This document shows, one piece after another, positions 22,846 through 63,169 of a DNA stretch of 64,000 bases. The translations under genes and the position numbers were made by a program. The notes under the pieces are model-generated. The model made no database searches. It had not been told where the DNA came from and worked only from the letters and a program-made list of their open reading frames with translations. Within the stretch, counting starts at the first letter, position 1. The number at the start of each line of letters is the position of its first letter. This DNA comes from Escherichia coli. GTDB lineage: Bacteria > Pseudomonadota > Gammaproteobacteria > Enterobacterales > Enterobacteriaceae. The stretch lies in NCBI RefSeq assembly GCF_003334335.1, contig NZ_QOWQ01000007.1. One strand, 5' to 3'.

Positions 22846-22878
22846 ATAAAAAAAAGCCGGCATCATGCCGGCCCAAAA
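22846..22878. terminator. bidirectional hairpin terminator in yedS-yedR intergenic region
   Basis: aaaaaaaa-gccggcatcatgccggc-ccaaaaaa: perfect palindrome flanked by A-run and, on the other strand, T-run. Confidence 0.5.
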
Positions 22879-23102
22879 AATATAAACAAGACGATAAAAG
22901 GCTAATAACGGAAGCATCATGACACAGAATAATAAAAAGGTATAATTGTAATCAGTGCTAATATATTGATTAAATGAATTAATAAAGCCGATATCAAAGA
23001 TAAATAAAATCGCTCAAAACGATTTTTCCTGTATTCACTGCCGTTGCGCAAAATTTATCTATTTGTTCAAAAAATGATTGAGTCTTGACTGGCTCATCCA
23101 AT

Positions 23103-31161: not shown

Positions 31162-31340
31162 TTACCAGGATGATTCTCAAAACAGCACAAATAATCAAAG
31201 ATGATTTTTTCGGGAGCGATCCCGTTGACGCCAGAGCCACCAAGGGGTGACGCACGTCACATTTCTATTCATAAGTAGCGTTAATCATTCATATCGCGAA
31301 TATTTTCTTGTCAGCGAAAAAAATTGCGGATAAGGTGATG

Positions 31341-31427
31341 AACACATCAGATTTCCTGGTGTAACGAATTTTTTAAGTGCTTCTTGCTTAAGCAAGTTTC
31401 ATCCCGACCCCCTCAGGGTCGGGATTT
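31341..31427 (+). ncRNA. dsrA: DsrA small regulatory RNA (Hfq-dependent; rpoS activator / hns repressor)
   Basis: Matches the DsrA sequence AACACATCAGATTTCCTGGTGTAACGAATTTTTTAAGTGCTTCTTGCTTAAGCAAGTTTCATCCCGACCCCCTCAGGGTCGGGATTT incl. terminator hairpin and U-tract. Confidence 0.95.
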
Positions 31428-31440
31428 TTTTATTGTGCAT

Positions 31441-31668
31441 TCAACGATTCACTTCAGAGACGCTGAAGTCATGAATATCCAGTTCGAAGGCATCCGCCAA
31501 TTCACGCCATGTATGATATTCACGTCCATCGACGCTAACGTGTTCAGAATCGTTCTGGCTGCGATGAACTTCGCTTTCGCTAATTTCATTGATCGCCGCC
31601 AGCAGGGCATCGACATCGACGCTGACCTCACGTTTTGCGGTATCGCTGTACTCTTTTGCGGTTTTCAT
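31441..31668 (-). CDS. yodD: small stress-induced protein YodD
   Basis: ORF track 31441..31683; start trimmed to MKTAKEYSDTAKREV (75 aa). Confidence 0.8.
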   Translation of the reverse strand: MKTAKEYSDTAKREVSVDVDALLAAINEISESEVHRSQNDSEHVSVDGREYHTWRELADAFELDIHDFSVSEVNR

Positions 31669-31740
31669 CATCTTTCCTCGCAACCGTTACTCTGTTGTTG
31701 CCGCCAGTCGTTAAGTCCGCCTGGCATCTCTTAAGTATAG

Positions 31741-32019
<279 letters not shown>

Positions 32020-32062
32020 TCTTATTCAGCCTGACTGGTGGGAAACCACCAGTCAGAATGTG

Positions 32063-32686
32063 TTAGCGCATGTTGACAAAAATACCATTAGTCACATTAT
32101 CCGTCAGTCGGACGACATGGTAGATAACCTGTTTATTATGCGTTTTGATCTTACGTTTAATATTACCTTTATGCGATGAAACGGTCTTGGCTTTGATATT
32201 CATTTGGTCAGAGATTTGAATCGTTCCCTGACCTGCCATCCACATTCGCAACATACTCGATTCGGTTCGGCTCAATGATAACGTCGGCATATTTAAAAAA
32301 GAGGTTATCGTTGTCTCTTTTTTCAGAATATCGCCAAGGATATCGTCGAGAGATTCCGGTTTAATCGATTTAGAACTTATCAATAAATTTTTTCTGACCA
32401 ATAGATATTCATCAAAATGAACATTGGCAATTGCCATAAAAACGATAAATAACGTATTGGGATGTTGATTAATGATGTGCTTGATGTGCTGACTGTTAGA
32501 AGCATCATGGATGAAACAGTCCTCATTAATAAACACCACTGAAGGGCGCTGTGAATCACAAGCTATGGCAAGGTCATCAACGGTTTCAATGTCGTTGATT
32601 TCTCTTTTTTTAACCCCTCTACTCAACAGATACCCGGTTAAACCTAGTCGGGTGTAACTACATAAATCCATAATAATCGTTGACAT
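32063..32686 (-). CDS. rcsA: LuxR-family transcriptional co-regulator of capsule synthesis
   Basis: 207-aa ORF with C-terminal LuxR-type HTH; AT-rich gene. Confidence 0.9.
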
Positions 32687-43426: not shown

Positions 43427-43640
43427 CGCGCACCTCGTGGCTGATTATGGACGGCGTTATTGGCAAAGTGGAACAAGACTCACTCCCGGGTCAGCAAACT
43501 CGAAAAATTGACGCTGCCATTATTTGTGCTTTCGTTTTTTTCTATCCGCCAATAAACCCGTTTTTTTGTTGCTATTTAGCGCCTTTGTCTTATTGACTTA
43601 CTGGTAGGCTTTGCTACCAGAAATTATCCAGGAGACGAAA
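43427..43640. promoter_or_regulatory. divergent fliF / fliE class-2 promoter region
   Basis: Intergenic region between divergently transcribed fliF and fliE; no motif verified. Confidence 0.4.
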
Positions 43641-43955
43641 ATGTCAGCGATACAGGGGATTGAAGGGGTTATCAGCCAGTTACAGGCTACGGCGATGAGT
43701 GCGCGTGCGCAGGATTCACTGCCGCAACCGACCATTAGTTTTGCCGGGCAGCTGCACGCCGCGCTCGATCGCATTAGCGATACACAAACAGCTGCCCGCA
43801 CGCAGGCAGAAAAATTCACCCTCGGTGAACCCGGCGTGGCGTTAAACGATGTGATGACCGATATGCAAAAAGCCTCAGTTTCTATGCAAATGGGGATTCA
43901 GGTGCGTAATAAGCTGGTGGCGGCGTATCAGGAAGTGATGTCCATGCAGGTGTAG
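43641..43955 (+). CDS. fliE: flagellar hook-basal body protein FliE
   Basis: ORF track 43611..43955; start trimmed to [10 protein letters not shown] (104 aa). Confidence 0.9.
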
Positions 43956-44347
43956 GTTTTGTAACCTGTTGTTAATTACATCCCATCTGCCCGCGTGGGG
44001 CATGGATGGGGCAAACTCACCCTATTTCTGGTTTAAAATGGATACCTGATCCTGAAAGTTTTCTGCCATCCACGATCCGTATACGCGATAAACCCTCTGA
44101 TCATCAGAGGCCTCATTTGATACACATCACCACGTCGGATGTTGTTACGACCGCAGACGCAACAGTAACGTTTGAATAATTTAATCTTTGTTGATGTTTT
44201 TATTCATATTCCGGGCTAGGGAAATAATCAGGCGTAATTGTGTCACTGGAATAGAGGTTTCTTGTGGCGCATGTGGAAGGAGCGTCTACTTTGTCTAATA
44301 GAGATTTCTTATGACGCAGTATTATTGATCAATAGTCTCCTGGCTTA

Positions 44348-45016
44348 TCAAACCGGTTGAATTAACTCCGCTCCCTGGTTTTTGATATTACCCACCGCGC
44401 GCGATACCGGGTGCCAGGAGAACTGGTTTGCTGGCACACAGCCACTGGCCGCGATTTCTGAGGCTTCTTTACCGCCAATGTCTTGCCGCATCCATTCCCG
44501 CGCAGCTTCTGGCGACAGTACCAGTGGGCGGCGGTCATGAATGTCTACCAGACCCTGGTCTGCTGCAGCAGTGACAATTAAAAATCCTTCGGCTTCGTCA
44601 CCGCGCTCAAACGGTGTGCTACCTATCGCGGCCATAAAAACAGGTTGTCCATCAGCGCGATAGATAAAATAAGGCTGTTTTTTGTCGCCTTCTTTTTTCC
44701 ACTCAAACCAGCCATCGGCAAAACAGATTGCCCGACCATGTTGCCAGAGCGGTTTAAACATGCGACTGGTGGCCGCAGTTTCTACGCGGGCGTTAATCAG
44801 CGGCGGTTTATCCCACCATCCGGGAGCATATCCCCAGAAAACCGGATCCAGATGAAGGTGTTCATCACGTTCACTGAGCAGAAGAACTTTGGTTCCCGGC
44901 GCGACGTTGTATCTGCCAATGGGTTCGGGATCGTAGGGAATATCGCGTTCAATATCTTCCGCGAGAAGCGCAAGGTAATCTTCACGCGTTTGGGATTGGG
45001 CAAAGCGTCCACACAT
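44348..45016 (-). CDS. yedK: SOS-response-associated peptidase (abasic-site DNA-protein crosslink protein)
   Basis: 222-aa ORF beginning MCGRF (catalytic Cys2). Confidence 0.9.
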   Translation of the reverse strand: MCGRFAQSQTREDYLALLAEDIERDIPYDPEPIGRYNVAPGTKVLLLSERDEHLHLDPVFWGYAPGWWDKPPLINARVETAATSRMFKPLWQHGRAICFADGWFEWKKEGDKKQPYFIYRADGQPVFMAAIGSTPFERGDEAEGFLIVTAAADQGLVDIHDRRPLVLSPEAAREWMRQDIGGKEASEIAASGCVPANQFSWHPVSRAVGNIKNQGAELIQPV

Positions 45017-52917: not shown

Positions 52918-53017
52918 TGCCTGATGCGCTGCGCTTATCAGGCCTACAAGGTGAACTGCAATTTATTGAATTTGCACATTTTTGTAGGCCAGATAAGGCG
53001 TTTACGCCGCATCCGGC
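52918..53017. repeat. BIME: two inverted REP elements in fliC 3' region
   Basis: gcctgatgcgctgcgcttatcaggcctac and gtaggccagataaggcgtttacgccgcatccggc. Confidence 0.75.
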
Positions 53018-62866: not shown

Positions 62867-62951
<85 letters not shown>

Positions 62952-62996
62952 ACATCGGCCTCAAGCGGATGTCTGGCTGAAAGGCCTGAAGAATTT

Positions 62997-63070
62997 GGCG
63001 CGTTAACAAAGCGGTTATGTAGCGGATTGCAAATCCGTCTAGTCCGGTTCGACTCCGGAACGCGCCTCCA
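62997..63070 (+). tRNA. cysT: tRNA-Cys (GCA)
   Basis: GGCGCGTTAACAAAGCGGTTATGTAGCGGATTGCAAATCCGTCTAGTCCGGTTCGACTCCGGAACGCGCCTCCA. Confidence 0.95.
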
Positions 63071-63082
63071 CTTTCTTCCCGA

Positions 63083-63169
63083 GCCCGGATGGTGGAATCG
63101 GTAGACACAAGGGATTTAAAATCCCTCGGCGTTCGCGCTGTGCGGGTTCAAGTCCCGCTCCGGGTACCA
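63083..63169 (+). tRNA. leuZ: tRNA-Leu (UAA)
   Basis: GCCCGGATGGTGGAATCGGTAGACACAAGGGATTTAAAATCCCTCGGCG...GGGTACCA, 87 nt with long variable arm. Confidence 0.95.

Follow-up and report, generated by a model that had tools for sequence, protein, structure and literature searches.

DsrA is among the most thoroughly studied of the bacterial small RNAs. In the RefSeq record of Escherichia coli K-12 MG1655, dsrA (b1954) occupies 2025223..2025313 (91 nt) between yodD (2024986..2025213, on the opposite strand) and yedP, and the arrangement in which yodD runs toward dsrA while yedP runs away from it has already been tabulated for E. coli and Salmonella. Stem-loop 1 (SL1) of the RNA has been defined by NMR as nt 4-22, stem-loop 2 (SL2) is bistable, and Linker1 together with SL2 has been assigned to pairing with hns, mreB and rbsD (PMC5766208). 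The U-tail has a role in Hfq binding, and the efficiency of the DsrA terminator goes up at low temperature (PMC6582626). Temperature control of the dsrA promoter, and the importance of its spacer, are credited to Repoila & Gottesman (2001, 2003) in passages of PMC8544407, PMC2613000 and PMC6582626. The overlapping bidirectional terminators (Ju et al. 2019) are a second described system with a bearing on this locus.

We examined dsrA and its surroundings in a stretch of 64,000 nt from E. coli (contig NZ_QOWQ01000007.1 of assembly GCF_003334335.1), which we call the window and whose coordinates we use throughout. There is very little doubt in our minds that 31341..31427 is dsrA, that it belongs to an ordinary E. 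coli other than K-12 and encodes the Hfq-dependent sRNA, and that the hairpin of stem-loop 3 (SL3) is used from both strands. The gene is already known, stands in a known context and carries the majority E. coli allele, and this copy matters little in itself. Two points reach beyond it: a scan of raw sequence recovers a real gene that PGAP annotation omits, and the 3' end of dsrA is not free-standing, as the yodD message appears to be ended by the same hairpin across the Enterobacteriaceae. Identity, structure, complementarity to both targets, synteny, spacing and the conservation of that spacing come from the present analysis; expression, Hfq dependence, regulatory outcomes, temperature control and mapped 3' ends are taken from the literature on K-12, and we assume that this strain acts like K-12 on the strength of its sequence identity, promoter included.

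Identity and structure of the dsrA gene

An Rfam cmscan of the whole window placed DsrA (RF00014) at exactly 31341..31427 on the + strand, with 102.5 bits (E 1.5e-18) against a gathering score of 60; the match covers model positions 1-85 of 85 and is not truncated. The 87-nt sequence, AACACATCAGATTTCCTGGTGTAACGAATTTTTTAAGTGCTTCTTGCTTAAGCAAGTTTCATCCCGACCCCCTCAGGGTCGGGATTT, is identical to MG1655 b1954 at all 87 positions, and the RefSeq 91-nt form is likewise matched, 91/91, by 31341..31431 (+), the extent that we assign to the gene. Three 3' ends thus need to be kept apart: that of the classical 87-nt form at 31427, that of the RefSeq 91-nt annotation at 31431, and the dominant Term-seq end at 31425, which gives an RNA of 85 nt. 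The order yedP/dsrA/yodD/dsrB/rcsA and the orientations of these genes are the same as in K-12, and dsrA is in its native place.

Folding of the DsrA strand gives three hairpins with an energy of -31.9 kcal/mol (z -4.67), which was equalled by 0 of 200 dinucleotide shuffles. Together with the Rfam match, this puts the finding well outside what chance would produce. SL1 (DsrA nt 4-22, window 31344..31362, +) has a 7-bp stem and an AUUUC loop and appears in the minimum free energy fold, the Rfam structure line and the RNAalifold consensus. SL2 (about nt 26-59, 31366..31399, +) is found in the minimum free energy fold and by RNAalifold; linker and SL2 together span about nt 23-59, and the upper 5-bp stem of SL2, CUUGC/GCAAG, is conserved across species. 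SL3 and its T run (31401..31431, +) were found both by the terminator scan and in the fold. The 10-bp stem, at 31401-31425, contains seven G-C pairs and is followed by T7 at 31425-31431, and on the + strand SL3 is the canonical intrinsic terminator of DsrA. The T7 run also provides the tail of at least seven U that marks the DsrA family, and SL3 with this U-tail would form the Hfq-binding 3' module described in the literature.

The fold agrees with what is seen among homologs. From 26 diverse homologs, RNAalifold recovered SL1, SL3 and the upper part of SL2. Compensatory changes affect four pairs of SL3 and one pair of SL1, five in all; the window's allele of the SL3 stem is all Watson-Crick. 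The homolog from Pantoea wallisii was omitted from this structure alignment. It keeps SL1, the rpoS-pairing stretch and a terminator, and SL2 is absent.

An earlier note on this DNA had claimed an 87-nt DsrA of full length in which both regulatory stem-loops and the terminator are present, and had named alignment to the K-12 gene as the check and mismatches in the hns- or rpoS-pairing regions as what would speak against it. The end-to-end RF00014 match and the three-hairpin fold bear the claim out, the alignment is the 87/87 identity given above, and no mismatches were found in either pairing region.

Pairing with rpoS and hns

Both targets lie outside the window, and their sequences were taken from K-12, not from this genome. 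The duplex figures given here come from restricted inputs. RNAduplex runs of full-length DsrA against the 230-nt rpoS leader or the 514-nt hns mRNA returned long, gappy duplexes that were no better than those of shuffles, and these runs were dropped.

The rpoS-pairing region (DsrA nt 9-33, window 31349..31373, +) was located with RNAduplex against the K-12 rpoS leader, where it pairs with -120..-96 (dG -26.4, z -6.0 against 500 shuffles) around a 13-bp core helix between DsrA nt 20-32 and -119..-107. This agrees with the published duplex, in which DsrA 1-32 (DsrA32) pairs with rpoS -119..-95 (PMC5766208). The hns-pairing core (DsrA nt 31-43, window 31371..31383, +), in the linker and the lower part of SL2, forms an uninterrupted 13-bp helix with hns +7..+19, and the extended duplex of DsrA nt 25-50 with hns +1..+23 has a dG of -21.9 and a z of -5.1 (RNAduplex). 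The longest uninterrupted helix, G.U pairs allowed, discriminates weakly, as 13 bp was reached by 8 of 500 and by 30 of 500 shuffles, and it served solely to locate the cores.

Pairing of nt 9-33, in SL1 and the linker, with the rpoS leader would open the inhibitory leader hairpin and turn on translation of RpoS, by an anti-antisense route, and pairing of the linker and lower SL2, through the core at nt 31-43, with the start of the hns mRNA would lower H-NS synthesis. Activation of rpoS, repression of hns and binding of Hfq at the 3' hairpin and U-tail are the functions to be expected of this RNA from its identity with the studied K-12 gene.

The dsrA promoter and the DNA upstream of it

A sigma-70 consensus scan missed the dsrA promoter because its -10 element is weak, and conservation across species was used in place of the scan. 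Across 82 distinct upstream sequences anchored on +1, a core promoter was delimited at 31307..31336 (+). It consists of a conserved block CTTGTC(A) at -34..-28 (31307-31313), an A-rich spacer of 15-17 nt, and a block GATAAGGT at -12..-5 (31329-31336), for which the cross-species consensus is GATAAnGT. Two registers of the -10 element are possible, the hexamer being TAAGGT if the spacer is 17 nt and GATAAG if it is 15 nt. K-12 has the same sequence from -45 to +1, the nearest difference being at 31295. Transcription of DsrA would thus start from a temperature-sensitive sigma-70 promoter with a weak -10 and would end at SL3 and the U-tail.

About 90 nt upstream of the dsrA start, at 31247..31260, is the palindrome GTGACG-CA-CGTCAC. 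Its centre is CA in the window and TG in K-12. Each version is thus exactly the other's reverse complement, a difference that looks like the signature of a hairpin-loop inversion. The palindrome was flagged as terminator-like by the scan, yet it lies within the divergent yedP/dsrA promoter region.

A hairpin shared with yodD

The neighbor of dsrA on its 3' side is yodD, which encodes an RpoS-dependent stress protein of 75 aa (RpoS dependence: PMC10957080, PMC4447067). The reading frame, at 31441..31668 on the - strand, is identical to K-12 b1953 and agrees with the PGAP annotation of E. coli strain 1506; its TGA stop is at 31441..31443 (-). The two genes are thus convergent, as had been stated before. 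The figure of 14 nt previously given for the distance from the DsrA 3' end to the yodD stop is right as the difference between 31441 and 31427, and the intervening bases number 13. Counted in this second way, the gap shrinks from 13 nt with the 87-nt form to 9 nt if the 91-nt annotation is used, and the 85-nt Term-seq end widens it to 15 nt.

Between the yodD stop and dsrA, the terminator scan found no terminator-like site on the - strand; the only site was that on the + strand. The hairpin at 31401-31425 is the sole hairpin in the dsrA/yodD gap, and there is no room for separate terminators. On the - strand it folds as an 11-bp hairpin, and the sequence that follows it on the yodD side, AUGAAACU, has no U-tract, the U-tract being on the DsrA side only.

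Both 3' ends have been mapped in K-12 by Term-seq. For DsrA, Adams et al. 2021 (PMC7815308, supplementary file 1) give position 2025229 (-) of K-12 under each of the three conditions, with 603756 reads in LB at OD 0.4, 887088 in LB at OD 2.0 and 777985 in M63. The "primary" end of yodD is at 2025257 (+) and is labelled antisense to dsrA; it has 11227 reads in LB at OD 2.0 and 2463 in M63 and is absent in LB at OD 0.4, and its restriction to stationary phase and minimal medium fits the RpoS dependence of yodD. The two 61-nt strings reported with these ends occur verbatim in the window and place them at 31425 (+) and 31397 (-). The yodD mRNA therefore extends across the complement of SL3 and for 5 nt more (...GGGAUGAAA), to end inside dsrA, with a 3' UTR of 44 nt (31397..31440, -) that runs from the base after the stop to the Term-seq end. 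With ends taken from K-12 and a sequence that is identical here, the antisense overlap is 29 nt, 31397-31425, which are the last 29 nt of DsrA.

The earlier note had proposed that terminator read-through in either direction would create antisense overlap. The overlap does occur, but on the yodD strand read-through is not needed for it, because the two genes share the terminator hairpin and the K-12 yodD 3' end has been mapped inside dsrA. By our analysis the 29-nt overlap would be present whenever yodD is expressed, as something built into the shared hairpin: SL3 on the - strand, with no U-tract, would mark the 3' end of the convergent yodD mRNA, and the two RNAs would overlap by about 29 nt. 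Read-through of DsrA into yodD antisense is also an established possibility, because the efficiency of the DsrA terminator depends on temperature (PMC6582626). Because the hairpin is shared, deleting, tagging or replacing either the dsrA terminator or the yodD 3' end will alter both transcripts.

Conservation of the locus across the Enterobacteriaceae

Homologs were sought with an exact 18-base pattern, GATTTCCNGGTGTAACGAA, over species-representative genomes. The scan returned 86 loci, all but one from the Enterobacteriaceae, including Escherichia, Salmonella, Citrobacter, Enterobacter, Klebsiella, Raoultella, Leclercia and Lelliottia, with further loci in Buttiauxella, Trabulsiella, Atlantibacter, Siccibacter and Franconibacter and in one Pantoea. 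A match in a Deltaproteobacteria metagenome-assembled genome had no synteny and was rejected as a chance match to the 18-base pattern. By tblastn, the order and orientation of yedP/dsrA/yodD/dsrB/rcsA are kept in about 80 species loci.

The spacing between dsrA and yodD was counted wherever the yodD C-terminus was complete, at 78 loci. In 74 of them, 2-15 nt separate the yodD stop from the last T of the DsrA T run, with modes at 4 and 9, so we consider the tight layout to be old. Wider gaps measure 22-24 nt in two loci and more than 120 nt in two Buttiauxella loci only. The extra length in these two Buttiauxella species is an insertion of 124-141 nt that separates the yodD stop from the DsrA terminator.

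Past the hairpin in the yodD direction, the first 8 nt include no more than three U in 78/78 loci, and for that reason the hairpin is a canonical intrinsic terminator for DsrA alone in all of them. The yodD strand forms the stabler SL3 hairpin in 59 of 78 loci, with a margin above 1 kcal/mol; the reverse holds in two. In about 18 loci, a pair inside the stem is A.C, a mismatch, when read as DsrA and G.U, a wobble, when read as yodD; they include Salmonella, many Citrobacter, some Enterobacter, Superficieibacter and E. whittamii. The loci are phylogenetically related, and the excess of variants with the A.C in the DsrA sense amounts to some 5-6 independent events against 1-2, which is suggestive and not significant alone.

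Formation of the yodD 3' end

We considered two accounts of the yodD end at 31397. According to the first, yodD transcripts read through past the hairpin, dsrA and the dsrA promoter, possibly into the co-oriented yedP, and 31397 is what 3'-to-5' exonucleases leave when they stall; we would put this at slightly under an even chance. The end is 5 nt beyond an 11-bp, G+C-rich hairpin that lacks a U-tract, and ends a few bases past a stable hairpin, where PNPase or RNase II stalls, are typical of trimming. On the yodD strand, yedP follows downstream with no terminator-like site in between. The curated Term-seq 3' ends of K-12, however, include no further one on the + strand between 2025257 and 2043181, no read-through product is documented, and the region is absent from the Rho table of Adams et al. 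(PMC7815308).

The second account takes 31397 as a true termination site. The hairpin would pause the yodD polymerase, which would then be released by head-on collision with polymerases from the much more active dsrA promoter, together with trailing polymerases; we hold this to be a fair way short of probable, although well worth entertaining, and the same guarded view applies to the reading that goes with it, that the hairpin is an "overlapping bidirectional terminator" with a single canonical side. The layout is suited to it, with a convergent pair of genes, a single hairpin and 3' ends that overlap on both strands. Members of the known class do not resemble intrinsic terminators and are Rho-independent, working by hairpin pausing and collisions (bioRxiv 10.1101/2022.10.23.513370), and neither yodD nor dsrA is among the Rho-termination regions that Adams et al. 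tabulate (PMC7815308). In LB at OD 2.0, DsrA 3' ends outnumber yodD 3' ends by about 80:1, suggesting heavy opposing traffic. Against termination, none of the 78 species loci has a U-tract on the yodD side, and a Term-seq end may reflect termination or processing alike, as the method cannot separate the two. On balance, we regard collision-assisted termination and exonuclease trimming as about equally probable.

Possible regulatory meaning of the overlap

Since DsrA raises RpoS and RpoS drives yodD, the overlap could itself be regulatory, through feedback on DsrA or through an action of DsrA on the yodD mRNA. We think this unlikely, and think no better of the routes by which it might work, namely polymerase collision or a 29-nt duplex. 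The idea draws on yodD being the most purely RpoS-dependent among four promoters tested and on a sigma-S ChIP peak in the dsrB-yodD intergenic region (PMC10957080 / PMC4447067). It also draws on the tight layout kept in 74/78 species loci, and on a hairpin that is systematically more stable on the yodD strand, with A.C in the DsrA sense appearing as G.U on the yodD strand in several lineages.

Several observations weigh on the other side. The yodD 3' ends amount to about 1% of the DsrA 3' ends, which makes titration of DsrA implausible, and each of the two complementary segments is held within a stable hairpin of its own (-17.7 and -18.9 kcal/mol). In the RIL-seq/iRIL tables of PMC12262471, no chimera between DsrA and yodD mRNA occurs among the rows listed, which is a weak negative. 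None of the papers searched describes such an effect, and among them nothing specific to the dsrA/yodD locus was found on dsrA or yodD with antisense transcription or bidirectional terminators. Moreover, tight packing alone can explain a shared hairpin. The near-universal 2-15 nt spacing, the lack of a separate yodD terminator and the excess of stem variants that mismatch in DsrA but wobble in yodD are compatible with selection on the yodD-strand hairpin, but the fuller proposal, that the DsrA terminator hairpin is a conserved dual-use element setting the RpoS activator DsrA head-on against yodD, a gene among the most RpoS-dependent, with feedback, strikes us as improbable. If it were true, yodD transcription into dsrA, or pairing of DsrA with the yodD 3' UTR, would exert feedback on the output of DsrA, on its temperature-dependent termination or on the stability of the yodD mRNA.

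Prevalence, annotation and strain background

The 87-mer has a match in 5339 of 5426 complete E. coli genomes, at an identity of at least 99% in 4974 of the 5339, and has none in the other 87. Two of the matches sit on plasmids. In E. coli B-1109 (NZ_CP117971.1) the match covers nt 22-87 only, in two places in the record, which suggests that its dsrA is interrupted or rearranged near the end of SL1.

In none of 15 sampled genomes did a PGAP feature lie under the match, and strain 1506 (NZ_CP059288.1), which is 100% identical here, has no PGAP feature between yedP and yodD; dsrA is annotated, as 91 nt, in the curated MG1655 record only. The missing feature is an annotation gap and is no evidence of absence. 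It is the sole point in favor of a decayed or silent copy in place of a working gene, a reading to which we give almost no credence, as there are zero substitutions from the experimentally studied K-12 gene, promoter from -45 included, while flanking genes differ by 1.1-4.6%, and the position is the native, syntenic one.

The 5.6-kb locus around dsrA is 98.3% identical to K-12, with 93 differences, which tells us that the window is not from K-12; strains such as 1506 match it at 100% over 12 kb. All 93 differences fall outside a 926-bp block, 31296..32221, that holds the dsrA promoter core, dsrA, yodD, dsrB and the spacers between them and has zero differences from K-12, where about 16 would be expected at the flanking rate. 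The flanking genes yedP, dgcQ, rcsA and fliR differ from K-12 by 1.1-2.8%, and the distal part of the yedP-dsrA spacer by 4.6%. The block could be a recombination block common to this strain and K-12, or it could reflect unusually strong constraint.

Some other features of the window were noted in passing. A second sRNA, RseX (RF01401), is present at full length at 22849..22938 (-) with 97.7 bits, adjoining an intact porin gene that is annotated as "porin" in strain 1506. This gene appears to be the homolog of yedS/ompS, which is a pseudogene in K-12. A match to the Rfam sRNA ES036 (CssrF) at 52940..52981 (-) scores 42.1 bits, just over the gathering score of 37.6. The flagellin gene is annotated in strain 1506 as "FliC/FljB family" only. 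At about 43600..44350, between fliE and yedK, the identical strain 1506 has yedK directly after fliE; K-12 has yedL, yedN, yedM and intG remnants between the two. The distance from dsrA to the glyW-cysT-leuZ tRNA cluster (62867..63169) is about 1.7 kb shorter than in K-12, probably from the absence of the yedL/yedN/yedM/intG remnants.

Comparison with known systems

The closest system is DsrA of K-12 MG1655 itself (b1954; RF00014). The likeness extends to the 87/91-nt sequence, the promoter from -45, the neighbors yedP, yodD, dsrB and rcsA, the stem-loops and the pairing stretches; the difference is one of host genome only, with none in the gene itself. The other rpoS-activating sRNAs, RprA and ArcZ, share with DsrA the anti-antisense logic on the rpoS leader and the dependence on Hfq (PMC6582626). 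Their sequences and loci are unrelated to DsrA, which is the cold-induced member and also targets hns.

A second pair of convergent genes with a single shared hairpin is found next door, where dsrB (+) and rcsA (-) have a hairpin of 11 bp with a GAAA loop at 32031..32056, between their two stop codons. The dsrB 3' end mapped by Term-seq at K-12 2024594 corresponds to window 32060, 2 nt before the rcsA stop (32063-32065). This pair differs from dsrA/yodD in that neither side has a U-tract and both genes encode proteins.

Overlapping bidirectional terminators, as described by Ju et al. 2019 and in the ynaJ-uspE model (bioRxiv 10.1101/2022.10.23.513370), likewise have one hairpin between convergent units. 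At dsrA/yodD, too, the 3' ends on the two strands flank the hairpin and overlap (31425 on + and 31397 on -, from K-12 Term-seq), and the region is absent from the Rho-dependent list. A U-tract in both directions was not found here, and none is required in the collision-type class (bioRxiv 10.1101/2022.10.23.513370). The dsrA/yodD hairpin differs from that class in its asymmetry, the DsrA side being a textbook intrinsic terminator with T7 and the yodD side having no U-tract, and in that one of the partners is an sRNA of high abundance, with a 3' hairpin and U-tail that are used for Hfq binding as well.
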